Source of the DNA: an uncultured Rhodospirillaceae bacterium | Lineage (GTDB): Bacteria; Pseudomonadota; Alphaproteobacteria; GCA-2731375 | Reading direction: 5' to 3' | Length of the DNA: 53,825 bases | NCBI GenBank assembly: GCA_964507245.1 | Contig: CAZDQC010000002.1 | Coordinates: 2,285 to 56,109 of the forward strand | Program-made: the position numbers and the translations under genes | Part shown: positions 6,373-13,985 of the stretch, piece by piece | Position numbering within the stretch: position 1 is the stretch's first letter | How the letters are laid out: each line of letters starts with the position of its first letter | The notes under the pieces: generated by a model | Seen by the model: the letters and a program-made list of their open reading frames with translations, nothing else | What the model was told of the DNA's origin: nothing | The model's database searches: none

Positions 6373-8016
6373 TCAGTCCTCATCCCGGGCGGAGAAAATT
6401 CTTCCTCCCAACACTGTTCCCCACACGGGAATATCTTTTAGATCTACCGGTGCGATGGCAGTTGGGTCATCTTCCAACACGGCAAAATCCGCTCGCTTGC
6501 CCACTTCGATGCTGCCGATTTCCTGGTCCATCTTCAGGCTGTAGGCGGCACCTAGGGTGATCGCACTCAGGGCATCGGCGACGGTTATGCGTTCGTTTGG
6601 GCCTAGCAGATAGCCGGAAGCAGTCAACCGATTGACCGCGCACCAAGCGGTGAACAACGGACCAAGTGGCGTGACCGGGGCGTCGGAATGTATGGCGAAG
6701 GGTACGCCTAGGCGGATGGCCGTGGCCGCCGCATTGGCGCGTCTTGCCCGGTCGGGCCCCATGGTCTGTGTGCGATGTTCATCGCCCCAGAAATAGATGT
6801 GATTGGAGAAAACATTGACACCGATCCCCAAGGCCGCCATGCGGCGATACTGGCTTTCATCCGCCATCTGGCAATGCTGGAGCGTATGCCGGTGGTCACG
6901 GCGCGGTGTCTTGGCCAAGGCAGCTTCGATCGCATTTATGGTCACCTCGGACGCTTCATCACCATTGGTATGAATATGAACCTGGTATCCGGCATCGTGG
7001 TAGGCCTGAACCGTGGTGTAAATCTGATCCGGGCTCATGTTCCAGATACCATTGGGGGCGCCATTGTAATAGCCGGGCCAGCGCAGACGCCCGGTCATCC
7101 CCTGGATGGAACCATCCGTCATTAATTTAACCAGGCCGAAACGTAGTTTATCGTTGTTCAATTTTACCAGTTCAGCCATGCGGGCCACGCCCTGATCGGT
7201 CGGTACGCTGATACCGGCAAAGGCCGGAGCAATACGAAAGCGAAAATCATCATCATTCGTCCAAGTCACAAGGTTTCGTACGAATTCTTCCGACAAACTA
7301 TTGTGCAAATCTGTTGCGGTGGTGACACCGGTCTGACAAGCAAGCCGACCGAAGTTTTCCAACGACAGCTTTTCGGATGCCTCGGTGTTGTAATCCAGAC
7401 CAATTGCATTCAGGGCCATAGATTTAGCTGCCGTTTCTTGCAGTTCACCCGTCGGTTCGCCATAGACGTCCTTGGCGATGCCGTCGATGTTTATAGCAGA
7501 CGTAATGTTCGCCGCTGCCAAAACTGAGCGGGATACGTTCAACAAATGTCCGTTGGAATGCAGGACAACAACGTGGCGCGTGGTAGAAACTTTGTCTAGG
7601 TCACGGAGGTCCATGCGTCGACCGCCAAAATAAATGGGGTCAAAACCCCAAGCGACCAAGGGCGTATCGTCGTCCGGCATCGCAGCTTCGATCTTGACCA
7701 GTTTTTCAGATACGGCGTCAATGCTTTCAAGGCCTTCATAGACCTTGCCGTCAGGCCCCACACGTGGATGATATCCCAAATAGTGGTAACGCCAGATACT
7801 GCCCTGCCACAGATGGCAATGACCTTCGACAAGGCCAGGCATAAGCACCTTGTCAACGAAACGATCATTGATCACATAGTCACCCCAGCCGGTGACGTCG
7901 TCGAGGGAGCCTACCCCAAGAATACGGCCGTCCCGTACCGCGACATGAGTCGCCACGGCCTGATAGCTATTCATGGTGATAATTTTGCTCGCAGGAAAAA
8001 TTGTAATGTCGGACAC
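6373..8016 (-). CDS. Amidohydrolase 3 (YtcJ-like) metal-dependent hydrolase
   Basis: PGLVEGHCH, KLMTDGS, IHTNGD, QHCQ, HSDAPV, GSIEVGKRADF. GTG start chosen after AGGAG. Confidence 0.92.
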   Translation of the reverse strand: MSDITIFPASKIITMNSYQAVATHVAVRDGRILGVGSLDDVTGWGDYVINDRFVDKVLMPGLVEGHCHLWQGSIWRYHYLGYHPRVGPDGKVYEGLESIDAVSEKLVKIEAAMPDDDTPLVAWGFDPIYFGGRRMDLRDLDKVSTTRHVVVLHSNGHLLNVSRSVLAAANITSAINIDGIAKDVYGEPTGELQETAAKSMALNAIGLDYNTEASEKLSLENFGRLACQTGVTTATDLHNSLSEEFVRNLVTWTNDDDFRFRIAPAFAGISVPTDQGVARMAELVKLNNDKLRFGLVKLMTDGSIQGMTGRLRWPGYYNGAPNGIWNMSPDQIYTTVQAYHDAGYQVHIHTNGDEASEVTINAIEAALAKTPRRDHRHTLQHCQMADESQYRRMAALGIGVNVFSNHIYFWGDEHRTQTMGPDRARRANAAATAIRLGVPFAIHSDAPVTPLGPLFTAWCAVNRLTASGYLLGPNERITVADALSAITLGAAYSLKMDQEIGSIEVGKRADFAVLEDDPTAIAPVDLKDIPVWGTVLGGRIFSARDED

Positions 8017-8027
8017 AGGCGAAACTC

Positions 8028-8864
8028 CTAACCGTGCCAGGGCTGTAACAAAATCCATAACATTTCTACGGCGCGCAGCCAGTCATCCAGGGCCCGTTGG
8101 CGCGGCTCAAGGATAAGGGCATCGACGCCGGAGGTGGCATACCCATCCGCCATTTCCTTCAAAGCATTCGGGTCATCCTCCAACGGGTCCCAGAAAAGGC
8201 GCATTGAAACAACAAAATCCTTGCCGCGGGCCGCTCGAAGGTCCTCAATAATGGGGTTAATCTGATCCGTCGGCACGCGGGTGCCATGCCAACCGTCGCC
8301 CAGAGCTTTGGCTCGGCGCAAGGCCGGTTTGGAATTGCCGCCGACCCAGATGGGGATCTTGCGTTCCGGTTGCGGTAAGGCACGAATGCCATCCAGGGCT
8401 GCGGTCACAGTGGTAGGTTGATAGGAGATGGGGTCTTCGCCCCAGCAGGCCCGAAGGATGTTGATGATATCGTCAGTCCGGGCGCCCCGATCATGGAAGG
8501 GTACGCCCATGGCGTCGAATTCTGCTTCCATCCAGCCGACGCCGGTGCCCAGGATCAACCGTCCGTCGCTCAATAAATCTAGGGTCGCGAGCTCCTTAGC
8601 TAGGTGCGCTGGAATGCGTAAAGGCAATACCAAAACCGAAGTTCCTAGTTCCACTCGGCTTGTAGCCGCCGCCGCCCAGGTCAAAGTGATCAACGGCTCA
8701 TAAAAACTTTTCGAAGGCGGATAGGGGGCATCATGTGGAATCGCTAGATGATCATTAACCCAGATATTGTCATAGCCCAAATCCTCAGCCTGGCGGGCGC
8801 CGCGACGCACGGCTTCGGGCCCTGCCTTGCGACCGATTTGGGGAATGTGAATGCCCAATTTCAT
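8028..8864 (-). CDS. LLM-class (luciferase-like) oxidoreductase, Rv2161c-like, possibly F420-dependent
   Basis: AEDLGYDNIWVNDH, LGTSVLVLP, LAKELATLDLLSDGRL-LG-GVGW-EAEF, IPIWVGG, GDGW. Confidence 0.88.
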   Translation of the reverse strand: MKLGIHIPQIGRKAGPEAVRRGARQAEDLGYDNIWVNDHLAIPHDAPYPPSKSFYEPLITLTWAAAATSRVELGTSVLVLPLRIPAHLAKELATLDLLSDGRLILGTGVGWMEAEFDAMGVPFHDRGARTDDIINILRACWGEDPISYQPTTVTAALDGIRALPQPERKIPIWVGGNSKPALRRAKALGDGWHGTRVPTDQINPIIEDLRAARGKDFVVSMRLFWDPLEDDPNALKEMADGYATSGVDALILEPRQRALDDWLRAVEMLWILLQPWHG

Positions 8865-8932
8865 GATGCAATCCTTCTTGTGCTACGGGGGCGAGGCTGT
8901 TGTAATCTTCCGAGTATAGGAGAAATGGCGCT

Positions 8933-10582
8933 ATGGTCCGAGAGCTTATGAACCCTTGTGGCATTGTTGCGAGCGAGGATATGCCACTTGCATCACGCGG
9001 CATGCATGACGGCCCGACGATAATTGGTCTGTTCTCAAATCAAAAAGCCAATGCGGATTTGTTCCTGGATAATATCCAGGCTTTGTTGTCCGATCGATTT
9101 GATGATGTGGAATTCCTCCGCGGCCAGAAATCGGCCTCTGTGCCGGCGGAATTCTCTGACGAGTTTTTGAATCGCTGCCATATGGTGGCGGCCGCCTTTG
9201 GCGATTGAGGTTCATGCACGTCGTGGTGTATCCATGACAGCATCAAGTTAGAGAAGCTGGGCATACCCACCGCCACAGTCTGCAGTGATGAATTTTACAG
9301 CTTGGGCAAGGCGGAAGCTCAATGCCTCGGCGTACCCGGCCTACCCATTGCAGTGGTGCCCCACCCGGTCGCAAAATTATTGCCTGATGAAGTGGCCGGC
9401 CTTGCCCGTGGCGTGGTGGATGAAATTTATCGTCTGTGGCATGAGGACGCGGACCATCTGCGCGCCGAGTTCAAAGAAAAACAACCGTCCGCAAAACAAC
9501 AATTACGATACAAGTCATTGTTCGAAGGGAATTATACCGCCCCCAATGCACCTGAACGTATGAATGGCCCAGACGATTTGGACGGCGTTAATCGCCTGTT
9601 CTATAGCAGAGGGTGGACCGACGGCCTTCCCATAATCCCGCCCACGCCGGGACGATACGAAAAGATGCTGAGCGGGACGAATCTTGATGTAAATCAACTG
9701 TTATCCTTGATCGAGCCTCGTCAAGGCAAGGCTACAATTGGTAAGGTAGCGGTCAATGCAGTTATGTCGGGCTGTCTGCCGGAACATTTGCCGGTGTTGG
9801 TGGCCGCCGCCAACGCTCTGGGCAATTCGGATCTGAACCTCAAAGCTCTGAATACCACCACGCACCCTTGTACGGTTCTGGCTATAATCAGCGGCCCCAT
9901 TGTTGAAGAAATCGATATTAACAGTACCTACAACGCCCTTGGCCAGGGCAGCCTAGCTAATGCCACGATTGGTCGGGCAATTAGGTCAATCCTGTTGAAT
10001 ATCGGTGGGGGCACGCCCGGGATCCTGGATCGGGCCACTATGGGCTCTCCGTCCAAATTTAGCTTCTGCTTTGGTGAAAGGGCCGACGAAAGCCCATGGG
10101 GCGAAACTCTGGCCATGGAGCGCGGTTTTGCCCCGAATCAAAATACTGTCACCCTGTGTGGGGTTGAGGGGCCGCACAATGTGAACGACCATTACGGCAA
10201 GACGGCCGAGGAAATCTTGCTGACGGTCGGCGGCACCATGGCGCAACCAGGGCTGAATAACAGCTATCTGGGTGGTGAAATTATTGTGGTTCTGGGGCCG
10301 GAACATGCCGACATCATCGCCAAGGACGGCTTTTCTAAATCTGATGTCCGAAAATTCTTAATGGAACATGCTCGGATACCGGCCCATGCTCTGTCCGATC
10401 CACAACGCGATATTATGCGTCAATATGTACCACATCGCCTTTTGGACAACGGCAAGGGCGATGCCCTGATTGTCACTTCTCATGATGAAATTTTATTGAC
10501 GGTGGCTGGTGGCGCGGGTCGCCACTCGGCGATTATTCCCTCGTTCGGCAACACCAGGGCGGTGACTGAGATCATTGGATGA
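8933..10582 (+). CDS. UGSC-family selenoprotein (Sec at codon 92, TGA 9206-9208) fused to a C-terminal GWTDGLP domain of unknown function; 549 aa
   Basis: AGGAG RBS at 8918-8922. ORFs 8933..9208 and 9302..10582 are in frame (offset 369 nt). The gap translates without another stop: [43 protein letters not shown], a U-x-x-C motif. Confidence 0.9.
9209..9240 (+). promoter_or_regulatory. Candidate bacterial SECIS hairpin
   Basis: Directly after the TGA: TCATG(9212-16) pairs with CATGA(9233-37), and CAC or TGCAC pairs with GTG or GTGTA around a loop starting with G (GTCGTG). Folded by eye only. Confidence 0.5.
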
Positions 10583-10802
10583 GCCTTGCGGGCGCCTGGA
10601 TAGGTCTCCCTTGGATGACATGCCAATTACAATGGCCAGGCCAAAGAAAATCATGGCCACTGCCCATGTTGTTTCAGACATCAGAACTCTAGCGAACTGA
10701 AAATCTTTTGCAGTGTGCTGGATGCGAGCACAGGTTAATTCTGAGACAATCTCAAAAGCGCCAGAGAACTAAATTTTATAAATCGTCTCATGGGTCATAG
10801 GC

Positions 10803-12185
10803 CTATAAAGCCTTAACGATGTCGTCGATCATTTTCTTCGCGTCGGCGAACAGCATCATGGTGTTGTCGGCATAGAACAATTCGTTATCGATGCCGGCAT
10901 AGCCGGGCGACAGGCTACGCTTGACGAACAGGCAGGTTCGGGCTCGATCCACGTCCAGGATAGGCATGCCAGCGATAGGGGAGTTTGGCTCGTGAGCCGC
11001 CGGGTTAGTAACGTCGTTAGCCCCGATGACGAAGGCCACGTCGGCATTAGCAAAATCGGAGTTAATCTCCTCTAATTCGAACACTTCATCATACGAGACA
11101 TTCGCCTCGGCCAATAGCACATTCATATGGCCGGGCATGCGTCCAGCCACGGGATGGATAGCGTAAGTCACCTTGACCCCATGCTCTTTGAGCAAATCGC
11201 CCATGTCACGCACGGAATGCTGGGCCTGTGCCACAGCCAGACCGTAGCCGGGCACGATAATGACGGACGAGGCATTCTTCATAATATAGGCAGCATCGTC
11301 CGCGCTGCCTGCCTTTACAGGCTTGTCACTTTGGGTTCCAGTGGCGATAGCGTCACCGCCAAATCCGCCAAGCAGAACTGAGATGAAGGAGCGGTTCATG
11401 GCCTTGCACATGATATAGGATAGAATCGCACCGGACGAACCCACTAGGGCACCAGTGATAATCAGGGCGATGTTTTCCAACGTGAAACCGATGCCGGCTG
11501 CTGCCCAGCCCGAATAACTGTTAAGCATCGAAACGATCACCGGCATATCCGCTCCGCCGATGGGAATGATTAGCAAAAGGCCGAGCGCAAAGGCCAGGAT
11601 GGTCATAGCCCAAAACCATCCAGCCGCCGGCTCAATTGTGAATAGAACAACTAGAATGAGGATTGCCACACCCATGGCAGCGTTGAGGGCATGCTGGCCT
11701 GGAAAGACGATGGGATTGCCTGTGACAACACCTTGCAACTTGCCAAAGGCGATGATGGAGCCGGAAAAGGTAATAGCGCCGATCACCACGCCAATCCCCA
11801 TTTCGATTCGGCTAGCCAGCTTTAGCAACCCGTCGTCGCCGGCGATGTCGTAGGCACCCGGGTTGTAAAATGCCGCCGCTGCCACCAGAACGGCGGCTAA
11901 ACCCACTAGACTATGGAAGGCGGCGACTAGCTGCGGCATGTCGGTCATGGCAATGCGCCGGGCGATAATGGCTCCGATAGCACCGCCTGCGACCATCGCG
12001 CCCAAAATCCATTCGTAGGAGACAACGTCTGGATTGATCACCGTTGCAACCACGGCGATTGCCATGCCGATCATGCCGTAAATATTGCCGCTGCGGGCAT
12101 TTTCGGGCGATGACAAGCCGCGCAGGGCCATAATGAACAGGACCGAAGCGATCAGATATGCCAGGGCCGTCAAATTTGCCGACAT
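10803..12185 (-). CDS. pntB: NAD(P) transhydrogenase subunit beta
   Basis: MTDMPQLVAAFHSLVG, IGGADMPV, NSYSGWA, VPGYG, HPVAGRMPGHMNVLLAEA, GANDVTNPAA. Confidence 0.98.
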   Translation of the reverse strand: MSANLTALAYLIASVLFIMALRGLSSPENARSGNIYGMIGMAIAVVATVINPDVVSYEWILGAMVAGGAIGAIIARRIAMTDMPQLVAAFHSLVGLAAVLVAAAAFYNPGAYDIAGDDGLLKLASRIEMGIGVVIGAITFSGSIIAFGKLQGVVTGNPIVFPGQHALNAAMGVAILILVVLFTIEPAAGWFWAMTILAFALGLLLIIPIGGADMPVIVSMLNSYSGWAAAGIGFTLENIALIITGALVGSSGAILSYIMCKAMNRSFISVLLGGFGGDAIATGTQSDKPVKAGSADDAAYIMKNASSVIIVPGYGLAVAQAQHSVRDMGDLLKEHGVKVTYAIHPVAGRMPGHMNVLLAEANVSYDEVFELEEINSDFANADVAFVIGANDVTNPAAHEPNSPIAGMPILDVDRARTCLFVKRSLSPGYAGIDNELFYADNTMMLFADAKKMIDDIVKAL

Positions 12186-12197
12186 GACCGGGCGCCC

Positions 12198-12497
12198 CTA
12201 TTGCTTTTTCTTGTACATGGCCAGCATTCGCTGGGTAACAAGAAAGCCGCCAAATATATTCACGGCGGCCAATCCAATGGCGATCACTCCCAAAATCTTG
12301 GACAAAGTCATGTCCGGCGGTCCAGCTGCGATTACGGCGCCGACGATGATAACTGAGGAAATCGCATTAGTTACACTCATCAATGGTGTATGAAGGGCTG
12401 CTGTGACTGACCAGACCACGTAATACCCCACAAATATTGCCAGAAAGAAGATCGCTAGGCGGTAAATGAATGGATCAATGTCATTGGCCACATCCAT
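12198..12497 (-). CDS. pntAb: NAD(P) transhydrogenase subunit alpha part 2 (membrane)
   Basis: ALHTPLMSVTNAISS and NIFGGFLVTQRML motifs. Confidence 0.96.
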   Translation of the reverse strand: MDVANDIDPFIYRLAIFFLAIFVGYYVVWSVTAALHTPLMSVTNAISSVIIVGAVIAAGPPDMTLSKILGVIAIGLAAVNIFGGFLVTQRMLAMYKKKQ

Positions 12498-12503
12498 GGA
12501 CGT

Positions 12504-13658
12504 TTATTCCTTCGTACACAACAAGGGATGAATAACAGCGCCACCCTTGGTCAGGCAGACGCCCGAAACCGTCTCATCTTCGAAATTGAAGGAAATGCCA
12601 CCATTTTCGCTATCAATATGTGGCGAAAGAAAATTGAACAGATTGCGGGCATACAGTTCCGAGGCGTCGGCCGCGACCCGGGCCGGAAAATTAGCATGAC
12701 CAATAATCTTAATTCCTTTCACATCCTTAACCGTTCCCATTTCTGACAAGGCGCAATTGCCGCCATTCTCCACTGCCAGGTCGACGATAACAGAGCCCGG
12801 TTTCATCGACGCTACCATGGTTTCATCTACCAAGACCGGTGCTGCTTGGCCGGGGATCAGCGCCGTGCAGATGACAATATCCTGTTTGGAGATGGTTTCC
12901 GAGATTAGAGCTGCCTGTTTCTTCTGATATTCCCCGCTCATTTGCTTGGCATAGCCAGTTTCAGTTTCGGCCTGGGTGCTTTCCTCGTCATCGACCATTA
13001 TAAATTTGGCGCCCAGGCTTTCCACTTGCTCTTTTGTAGCAGGACGCACATCGGTGGCGGAGACCACGGCCCCTAATCGTCGGGCCGTGGCAATAGCCTG
13101 CAGGCCTGCGACCCCAGCGCCCATGACAAAGACCTTGGCCGGCGTAATGGTGCCCGCTGCCGTCATCATCATCGGCAGGGCACGGCCGAATTCTTCGGTC
13201 GCATCCAGCACAGATTTGTAGCCGGCTAAATTAGCTTGGCTGGATAACACGTCCATACTTTGCGCCCGGGTGATACGAGGCATCAATTCCATGGCAAAGG
13301 CATCGATGCCCGCTTCCGCATAGACTTCACAGTCAGCACGCCGGATAAGAGGGTTCAACATGGCGATCAGCACCTGCCCTGATTTCATAAATGCTAGCTC
13401 ATTATCCCTATCCGCCTCATCCAAAATCGGACGACGTACCTTCAGGATCACATCCGCGCCGTCGAGCGTGCCGGCTGCATCCGAGGCGATCGTAGCACCG
13501 GCCTGCTGATAATCCGCGTTGGAAATATAGGCGCCTGCTCCGGCATCAGCCTCGACCGCCACTTCAGCACCAAGTCCCACGAACTTCTTCACAGTTTCTG
13601 GCGTTGCCGCCACCCGCCGCTCACCGGTTCGCCGTTCTTTTAATACGGCAATTTTCAT
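12504..13658 (-). CDS. pntAa: NAD(P) transhydrogenase subunit alpha part 1 (dI)
   Basis: Starts MKIAVLKE..ERRVAATPETV; contains PRITRAQSMDVLSSQ, GAGVAGLQA, TALIPG. Confidence 0.97.
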   Translation of the reverse strand: MKIAVLKERRTGERRVAATPETVKKFVGLGAEVAVEADAGAGAYISNADYQQAGATIASDAAGTLDGADVILKVRRPILDEADRDNELAFMKSGQVLIAMLNPLIRRADCEVYAEAGIDAFAMELMPRITRAQSMDVLSSQANLAGYKSVLDATEEFGRALPMMMTAAGTITPAKVFVMGAGVAGLQAIATARRLGAVVSATDVRPATKEQVESLGAKFIMVDDEESTQAETETGYAKQMSGEYQKKQAALISETISKQDIVICTALIPGQAAPVLVDETMVASMKPGSVIVDLAVENGGNCALSEMGTVKDVKGIKIIGHANFPARVAADASELYARNLFNFLSPHIDSENGGISFNFEDETVSGVCLTKGGAVIHPLLCTKE

Positions 13659-13705
13659 ATATTTAACCCTGAAAGGGAGTCTAGAACGTTCAGAAGAATC
13701 CGCGG

Positions 13706-13733
13706 AATATAGCAAGTCGAGCGCATCAAGCAA
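13706..13733 (-). promoter_or_regulatory. Possible sigma70-type promoter of the pnt operon
   Basis: Minus strand TTGCTT-N16-TATATT, about 50 nt upstream of the pntAa ATG. Confidence 0.3.
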
Positions 13734-13985
13734 CGTATCGATTTTCTCTAACAATATTAATTTGTACGGATAATAAATTTTCCGCGCGGATCTGGAGAAA
13801 AAGTAGGATGCATAATTGGCCCCAATTTGGGGCACAGCGATGCTTCGATTTGATCACGCTATGCAAGGACCAGCATCATGGATACAAACAAAATTAGCGA
13901 CACTTTCTCAATATACTGCTTCATGTCTATGTATTTGGTTCTCTAGTGCGCTGAATATTGTTTGATTATACGAAGGAGCATCCTC

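Follow-up and report, generated by a model that had tools for sequence, protein, structure and literature searches.

A stretch of 53,825 nucleotides from an uncultured Rhodospirillaceae bacterium (hereafter the window, meaning the whole stretch of DNA analyzed) carries a gene at 8933–10582 on the forward strand that joins a selenocysteine (Sec)-containing UGSC domain to a large C-terminal domain, here called the partner. In genomes, the two modules are obligately coupled, being fused, adjacent, or in the same genome, and the partner repeatedly recruits disulfide-reductase modules by fusion or adjacency. We put at roughly 55% the probability that the gene encodes a single-chain, two-part selenoenzyme driven by thioredoxin, in which Sec92 would act on a substrate held by the partner.

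If the TGA at 9206–9208 is read as Sec, the gene is one 549-codon frame that ends in the stop codon at 10580–10582. This TGA is the only one in frame and yields U92 in the motif GDUGSC (residues 90–95). Under table 11, two in-frame open reading frames (ORFs) result instead, 8933–9208 and 9302–10582. An AGGAG sequence at 8918–8922 lies 10 nt 5' of the ATG at 8933, and the closest homologue (L015; 77% identity) has an identical start, M-[AV]-RELMNPCG. The features of the gene are as follows.

8933..10582, + strand: whole gene, a 549-codon selenoprotein (UGSC domain, linker, and partner domain) plus stop; one frame with one in-frame TGA.

8945..9442, + strand: UGSC domain, residues 5–170, parallel alpha/beta and flavodoxin-like in the model; delimited by PF24696, NF041046, and AlphaFold secondary structure.

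9206..9208, + strand: TGA read as selenocysteine U92 of the U-G-S-C motif, with partner cysteine C95; from translation and conservation.

9220..9238, + strand: hairpin of the selenocysteine insertion sequence (SECIS) type, with a 7-bp stem GUCGUGG/CCAUGAC and loop UGUAU; from folding and covariation.

9440..9529, + strand: polar, partly helical linker, residues 170–199; from translation and the full-length model.

9530..10579, + strand: partner domain ("Unknown_1" of a 2008 paper discussed below), residues ~200–549; uncatalogued, with many homologous clusters and a confident model.

9773..9775, + strand: Cys281 in the motif NAVM[AS]GC; conserved, and the cysteine marked in a figure of the 2008 paper.

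9974..9976, + strand: Arg348 in the motif ANATIGRA; invariant, present in all aligned copies.

10067..10078, + strand: Cys379 to Glu382, C-F-G-E (consensus CxAENE); from conservation.

This layout had been largely anticipated. The sequence-only reading described a UGSC domain fused to a large domain of unknown function, which the UGSC profile match and the single frame bear out, and it placed a linker followed by that domain at 9440..10582. Both ends are exact: the linker HEDADHLRAEFKEKQPSAKQQ starts at residue 170 (His170), nucleotide 9440, and the last position belongs to the stop codon. The motif blocks that it picked out (RGWTDGLPIIPPT, AVNAVMSGCLPEH, NTTTHPC, ANATIGRA, NIGGGTPGILDRATMGSPSK, CFGERADESPW, and VAGGAGRHS) are all present in the translation.

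On the evidence of sequence, the TGA is decoded as Sec, because the UGSC profile spans it, a covarying hairpin follows it, and the genome encodes the machinery. The PF24696 (UGSC) match covers residues 5–170 across the TGA (E 8.2e-43; 146.9 bits versus a cut-off of 25), and NF041046 also matches (140.3 bits versus a cut-off of 125). In 63 of 68 related loci with UGSC, the codon at this site is TGA, with Cys or another residue in the other five. Position 92 is invariably Sec or Cys across the 65 aligned UGSC domains (65/65), and C95 is at least 90% conserved. Full-length homologues with Cys at the Sec site also exist (P0079 and 12 more with CGxC). Both selB (442 bits) and selA (584 bits) exceed their curated cut-offs and are located on the same contig (C169) of the genome, in which aragorn also found a tRNA-SeC(tca).

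The hairpin begins 11 nt 3' of the UGA. Its folding energy taken alone is unremarkable (z −0.8), and its stem is also coding (T-S-W / V-H-D), which inflates its conservation. Despite this overlap, compensatory changes speak for the structure. Across 69 distinct UGSC genes, the hairpin is kept in register and 92.3% of cells pair, with two-sided changes in 23 cells that involve four of the seven base pairs. None of 500 shuffles matched the observed pairing or covariation, and slid controls paired in 20–53% of cells. A search of Rfam around the gene gave no match. As a separate observation, selB, which encodes the Sec-specific elongation factor, adjoins the module in two of the loci examined. In genome G204 (L109; 106–1788, 1976–3562, and 3577–4107), it immediately precedes a partner fused to a thioredoxin-fold module, together with a UGSC gene, and in L071 (1948–3867), it is directly downstream of a UGSC/partner pair.

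The coupling of the two modules was examined in 77 related loci, which derive from the best 80 of 600 matches and lean toward close relatives. UGSC is fused or adjacent to the partner in 68 of them. Seventeen of these are fusions, 16 with UGSC first and one in the reverse order, and the other 51 have separate genes, with UGSC preceding the partner in 40 loci and following it in 11. Gaps between separate genes are mostly smaller than 160 bp. Three further loci are cut at a contig edge, and six have no UGSC in the locus. Genomes of these six were searched in five cases and all five (5/5) have an unlinked Sec-UGSC gene. The pattern extends to an even sample of the window's phylum: among 401 genomes, the partner is present in five, and UGSC is present in the same five, side by side in each.

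Within the window's own genome, there are seven UGSC matches and nine partner copies, and complete UGSCs carry one TGA each. Each of the six complete UGSC copies either is fused to a partner or adjoins one; the seventh is cut by a contig end. Fused genes are on contigs C2 (the window), C178, and C149. Split clusters are arranged as UGSC followed by two partners on C91 and as partner followed by UGSC on C5 and C250.

Protein databases give a similar picture. Among the 120 closest clusters, 106 start within UGSC just after the Sec site, one is a full-length Cys form, and two have the size of a stand-alone partner. The 106 are fused selenoproteins whose gene calls were restarted after the TGA. 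We also classified the 150 best representatives at 50% identity, scanning 120 with Pfam and all 150 with our own UGSC profile. Stand-alone partners of at most 385 residues account for 81 of the 150, post-Sec fragments of fused forms for 36, full-length fusions for 16, and other forms for 13. The remaining four have the reverse order, with the partner followed by a UGSC that is cut at the Sec codon; three of the reverse-order proteins are among the 120 scanned with Pfam.

The sequence-only reading had suggested that the partner is often a separate gene beside UGSC, as is the case in the 51 loci with adjacent genes. It had also proposed that a fusion would be Rosetta-stone evidence that the two act as one enzyme, and this gains support from fusions in both orders and from the tight linkage of separate genes. 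The comparison of domain architectures and gene neighborhoods that it called for shows that the partner does not occur mostly without UGSC, in the loci or in the 401 genomes. Because the partner is almost always the neighbor or fusion partner of UGSC, the two modules probably form one reductase.

Variants of the arrangement were also seen. The six loci that lack UGSC (L054, L059, L062, L075, L080, and L088) are mostly from Poribacteria and have a compact partner subfamily of ~310 residues. In this compact form, ~40 residues are missing ahead of the VAGG block, and the nearest 7 kb contain no UGSC; in most of the six loci, the match is at about 6940–7780. A Chloroflexi contig (L049; 5607–7277, 7673–9355, and 9367–11049) has three tandem fused UGSC-partner genes, each with its own TGA, and loci L068 and L043 have extra, more divergent fused copies. 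One database protein (P0218) has two partner domains in a single chain of 717 residues, and another (P0159) has a partner with an N-terminal extension of ~200 residues that has no Pfam match.

Disulfide-reducing modules are associated with the partner in several configurations. Among the 120 representatives scanned, the partner is fused to Pyr_redox_2 in P0144 (E 6e-41) and to FeThRed_B, the catalytic chain of ferredoxin-thioredoxin reductase (FTR), in P0221 (E 2e-21). Three others (P0156, P0168, and P0192) have a C-terminal extension of ~90 residues with a CxxC motif and only a faint NifU-like signal. In the window's genome, a gene resembling thioredoxin reductase (TrxR), with a CAFC motif, is directly downstream of the C178 cluster and scores 236 bits on TIGR01292, below the cut-off of 343. 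TrxR-like genes are present in 5 of the 77 loci. Genomes G204 and G230 have a partner fused to a thioredoxin-fold module (CETC) and followed by a separate UGSC gene, with the fold assignment being weak (AhpC/TSA, E 3e-5; at 24.4 bits, it narrowly misses the cut-off). Because UGSC is kept where a thioredoxin-like module is already attached, UGSC is not a mere substitute for thioredoxin.

The partner has no Pfam or NCBIfam match at E ≤ 1, and a Pfam scan of 69 alignment members at E ≤ 10 gave only scattered chance matches, with no family matched by more than two members. A sequence search of the PDB with the domain returned only ISG15 at the level of noise (E 1.9), and in the ESM Atlas the matches were all to clusters of the family itself, unnamed or auto-named, with no named cluster. 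Thus, in regard to whether the domain could be a characterised enzyme of unrelated function, a possibility raised by the sequence-only reading, no match to the partner was found in Pfam, NCBIfam, or PDB sequences, nor a convincing one among PDB folds. The family itself is large, well outside what chance would give. At 50% identity, 5002 clusters reach E ≤ 1e-3, of which 1096 reach E ≤ 1e-30, and in a collection at 90% identity, 6739 of 8000 scored candidates are at E ≤ 1e-3. Hosts include Alpha-, Beta-, Gamma-, and Deltaproteobacteria, Binatia, Rokubacteria/Methylomirabilota, Chloroflexi/Dehalococcoidia, Acidimicrobiales, Poribacteria, and a Bacillaceae isolate, as well as two archaea, a haloarchaeon and a Methanobacteriaceae metagenome-assembled genome. 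Cultivable carriers, from these hosts or from the figure of the 2008 paper, include Vineibacter terrae, Robertmurraya sp., Natrialba asiatica, and Hyphomonas neptunium.

Conservation in the partner is concentrated in polar residues. Of 364 aligned copies, R348 is present in all 364, E382 in 362, N343 in 360, D230 in 359, D366 in 347, R351 in 332, and K375 in 331. Two cysteines are also common, C281 in 339 of the copies and C379 in 336.

An AlphaFold model of the domain alone (140 sequences) is confident, with a predicted local distance difference test score (pLDDT) of 94.6 and a predicted template modeling score (pTM) of 0.93. Searching the PDB with this model in Foldseek gave nothing at E ≤ 1e-3; the best matches were class I fumarate hydratase (E 1.7e-3; template modeling [TM] score 0.22) and cyanuric acid hydrolase/barbiturase (TM ~0.19). 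VIA-align against 48,161 chains peaked at Z 6.3, for chorismate mutase over 90 aligned residues, a value within the noise level stated for the tool. We therefore treat the modeled fold as one without a recognisable solved relative, rather than as proven to be new. One loop, residues 361–380 (window ~10013–10072), includes D366, K375, and C379 and has block-mean pLDDT values of 73 and 67 in the full-length model. Residues 371–374 are below 50 in that model, and the same loop is at ~95 in the domain-only model. A lid that moves at the interface between the domains could explain this drop, as could the smaller depth of the alignment behind the full-length model.

The full-length model (57 sequences) has a pLDDT of 92.5 and a pTM of 0.91, with values below 50 in the linker at residues 194–198. 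In it, UGSC is parallel alpha/beta with strands and helices in beta-alpha-beta order, and U92 and C95 sit at the start of helix 93–108, which places a UxxC redox pair at a helix N-terminus. VIA-align of model residues ~25–180 gave Z scores of 8–9.5 to flavodoxin-like and Rossmann-like folds, and no thioredoxin chain was among the top 50 Foldseek or VIA-align matches listed. Judged from the model, the UGSC module looks flavodoxin-like rather than thioredoxin-like.

A distant kinship also appears to link UGSC with the Sec core of GrdB/PrdB, the "selenoprotein B" subunits. Compared by hhalign, a profile built from 65 UGSC domains and one built from 13 PF07355-type (PrdB-like) proteins aligned with a probability of 80.9% and an E of 1.3e-5 over a short stretch of 59 columns. 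The alignment places Sec on Sec and Cys95 on Cys, and an LExxGxPT block is common to both. The UGSC profile against a single PF07355-type sequence had a probability of 49%. A search of the genome for PF09338 (GrdE/PrdA type) gave no match, which is uninformative given that 14 control genomes also had none.

Two PrdB/GrdB-like (PF07355) selenoproteins with U-P-x-C motifs are encoded in the same genome, at L092 (G000:C36; 1180–2337 and 2344–3420) and L093 (G000:C46; 25–1251 and 1267–2640). Each of the two PF07355-type genes directly adjoins a gene whose N-terminal sequence, judged by eye, looks like coenzyme A (CoA)-transferase family III. Across the class, PF07355-type genes are present in 13 of 151 genomes.

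In the single-chain selenoenzyme that we favor, the C-terminal partner would be the substrate-binding, catalytic body, with an uncatalogued fold. Its conserved polar core would be formed by D230, N343, R348, R351, D366, K375, and E382, plus the usually conserved C281 and C379. The N-terminal UGSC would be a flavodoxin-like alpha/beta module that presents Sec92-x-x-Cys95 at the start of a helix. In a first step, the Sec92 selenolate would attack what the partner domain holds, either the substrate or an oxidised intermediate. In a second step, Cys95 would resolve the adduct, leaving a Sec92-Cys95 selenenylsulfide, and in a third step, a thioredoxin-type system would reduce this bond again. We infer the chemistry and the direction of electron flow, and the roles in substrate binding and in resolving the selenium adduct are proposed on the same footing.

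Several observations weigh against this reading. Neither module has a known substrate, cofactor, or activity. The alignment that links UGSC to GrdB/PrdB spans a short 59 columns (probability 81%), Pfam GRDB (PF07355) has no match to the protein at E ≤ 1, with only PF24696 reported, and a relationship between the partner and the N-terminal part of PrdB-like proteins finds no support from hhalign (probability 0.05%). The partner cysteines are not invariant, with C281 missing from 25 and C379 from 28 of the 364 copies. When 595 neighboring ORFs from within the 77 loci were clustered, no neighbor gene was conserved across loci. Finally, of 17 full-length fused database proteins, four lack the redox motif, having IGGS, IGAA, SGVY, or GGNP instead, and one further protein keeps the first Cys and has Ser at 95. 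Because all 17 keep the conserved residues of the partner, the motif-less fusions raise the possibility that the partner may work without a redox-active fused UGSC.

The arrangement of UxxC at a helix start, as in thiol oxidoreductases, is also what would be expected if UGSC were a dedicated thiol/selenol-disulfide shuttle, functionally a thioredoxin. Under this explanation, UGSC would reduce a C281-C379 disulfide of the partner at each turnover and the partner would do all of the chemistry. The presence of both cysteines in 314 of 364 partner copies is consistent with such a shuttle, as are the partner's fusions to other disulfide-reducing modules, Pyr_redox_2 and FeThRed_B. We nevertheless consider it unlikely. 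One of the cysteines is missing from the other 50 copies, and the UGSC model is flavodoxin-like, with no thioredoxin-fold chain in the top 50 of either structure search. The UGSC Sec core aligns with that of GrdB/PrdB, in which Sec acts on the substrate. Moreover, the thioredoxin-fold partner fusions of G204 and G230 retain a separate adjoining UGSC, indicating that UGSC is not interchangeable with thioredoxin. "Cysteine migration" (N275C with C379V) was considered as a sign of a C281/C379 pair and set aside as too weak, with two cases and three more that have C275 with C379.

Alternatively, the partner could be a non-redox hydrolase, lyase, isomerase, or epimerase that acts on a carboxylate, with UGSC as a redox-sensing or structural accessory outside of catalysis. 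Strict conservation of Arg, Glu, Asn, and Asp rather than Cys would fit this explanation, as would the four motif-less fusions that keep the partner residues and the presence of neighbors that are catabolic and not redox specific (TctC, MmgE/PrpD, CoA-transferase III, enoyl-CoA hydratase, and amidohydrolases). It is nonetheless improbable, as a costly Sec codon is kept in 63 of 68 neighboring UGSC genes, Sec/Cys92 is invariant, and it is difficult, if no electrons are transferred, to account for the repeated association with TrxR-like, FTR-like, and thioredoxin-fold modules. Lastly, there is next to no chance that the TGA is a true stop that separates a 91-residue N-terminal fragment from a 426-residue protein starting at 9302: table 11 yields exactly these two ORFs, and in 106 of the 120 closest clusters public gene calls begin beyond the TGA, but a single Pfam domain crosses it, a covarying SECIS-type hairpin lies 3' of it, full-length homologues with Cys exist, and the genome has Sec machinery.

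The genes surrounding the modules bear on possible substrates. The largest neighbor clusters across the 77 loci are TctC (21) and MmgE/PrpD (8), followed by short-chain dehydrogenase/reductase, enoyl-CoA hydratase, and CoA-transferase III (6 each), and luciferase-like and TrxR-like genes (5 each). Acyl-CoA dehydrogenase, luciferase-like oxidoreductases, and various amidohydrolases, DUF6282 among them, are also found in these neighborhoods, and the 64 same-strand ORFs within 150 bp present an equally mixed picture. The varying neighbors suggest small organic acids or amide/amine compounds as substrates of the selenoenzyme, which probably differ between paralogues. In three loci (L034, 464–2983; L041, 2470–4924; L068, 4286–7751), a DUF6282 gene is located between UGSC and the partner, and in L034 and L068, a TrxR-like gene is just upstream. 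This arrangement may be a four-gene variant of the system.

In the window, the selenoprotein gene stands alone between two gene groups on the opposite strand. Divergent from it, at 6373–8864 on the minus strand, are genes for a TIGR03619-type "F420-dependent" luciferase-like monooxygenase (LLM) oxidoreductase and an Amidohydro_3 protein; the LLM oxidoreductase scores 222 bits on the TIGR03619-type profile, over the cut-off. Amidohydrolase-type genes recur near other copies in the genome (C91). Convergent with the gene, at 10803–13835 on the minus strand, is a pntA/pntA-4TM/pntB operon for NAD(P) transhydrogenase, and no link between a pntAB operon and the pair was seen in the other loci. A promoter scan of 8700–10900 found zero sigma-70-like sites.

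Tying UGSC to one partner domain turns an entry of "function unknown" into a concrete experiment, for which the single-chain form of the window and the Cys-containing fused homologues are convenient constructs. As the partner belongs to a large family without a catalogue entry or solved relative, its structure would probably add a new enzyme fold. More tentatively, and as a possibility against which the odds still run, the modules may represent a type of selenium-dependent reductase that has yet to be described, a pared-down "protein B" akin to GrdB/PrdB but with a new catalytic fold. Such reductases would occur widely among aerobic bacteria of water and soil and in some archaea, having expanded into many paralogues for different small-molecule substrates, such as the nine partner copies of the window's genome, with Sec attacking the substrate and thioredoxin-type modules recycling the Sec-Cys bond. 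If this "protein B"-like reading is true, a function would be assigned to one of the most abundant aquatic selenoproteins.

Thiol-dependent reductases occur fused to their reductant, as in fusions of methionine sulfoxide reductase to thioredoxin. The UGSC/partner system is alike in that a catalytic domain is fused, depending on the lineage, to different disulfide-reducing modules. It differs in having no sequence or fold relation to those enzymes and in its extra, obligate Sec module, UGSC.

A parallel in organization is offered by glycine, sarcosine, and betaine reductases (GrdB/F/H with GrdE/G/I) and D-proline reductase (PrdB with PrdA), which are represented in Pfam by PF07355 and PF09338. 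In these systems, the substrate is bound by a larger subunit that cooperates with a small UxxC Sec subunit, and a thioredoxin-type system supplies the electrons. UGSC and its partner resemble them in pairing a small UxxC Sec part with a larger, putatively substrate-binding part, which a thioredoxin-type system would likewise drive, and the Sec core of UGSC aligns with theirs Sec on Sec. Conversely, UGSC has ~175 residues versus at least 385 in the PrdB-like proteins of the same genome and is without a PF07355 match, its partner is unrelated to anything catalogued, and hosts of the UGSC/partner system are largely aerobic aquatic and soil bacteria. We know of no pyruvoyl group or self-cleavage in the UGSC/partner system.

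UGSC was described in a 2007 paper as a selenoprotein of unknown function, and reviews of 2022 and 2026 list it without a function. In the full-text literature covered, which leaves subscription journals outside, no work on the function of either UGSC or its partner was found. Zhang & Gladyshev (PLoS Genet 2008; PMC2398784) count UGSC as a major selenoprotein family in the Global Ocean Sampling (GOS) data, with 255 Sec sequences and 21 Cys homologues, and by their Table 2 and text, few selenoprotein families match its abundance in ocean and freshwater metagenomes. The same paper proposes a thioredoxin fold for UGSC and reports a "UGSC/Unknown_1" fusion of unclear function. In its Figure S1A, rows carry A[VI]NAVMAGC[KR]PEY, with the motif A[VI]NAVMAGCxPEY[ML]PV and a marked Cys. 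The Unknown_1 signature NAVMAGCxPEY is present in the window as AVNAVMSGCLPEH, with C281 as the marked Cys. As far as the text and figures of that paper describe the fusion, an N-terminal Sec UGSC followed by Unknown_1, the window gene has the same architecture and is a further member of this published kind, still uncharacterised. The differences lie elsewhere: here, the partner is a family of 5002 clusters from many phyla and archaea that is obligately coupled to UGSC, and the UGSC model looks flavodoxin-like rather than thioredoxin-like. Set beside those parts of the 2008 paper, four comparative inferences appear to extend what was reported then: that UGSC and the partner are obligately coupled, that the partner recruits thioredoxin-type modules, that UGSC is modeled as flavodoxin-like, and that it is remotely linked to GrdB/PrdB.

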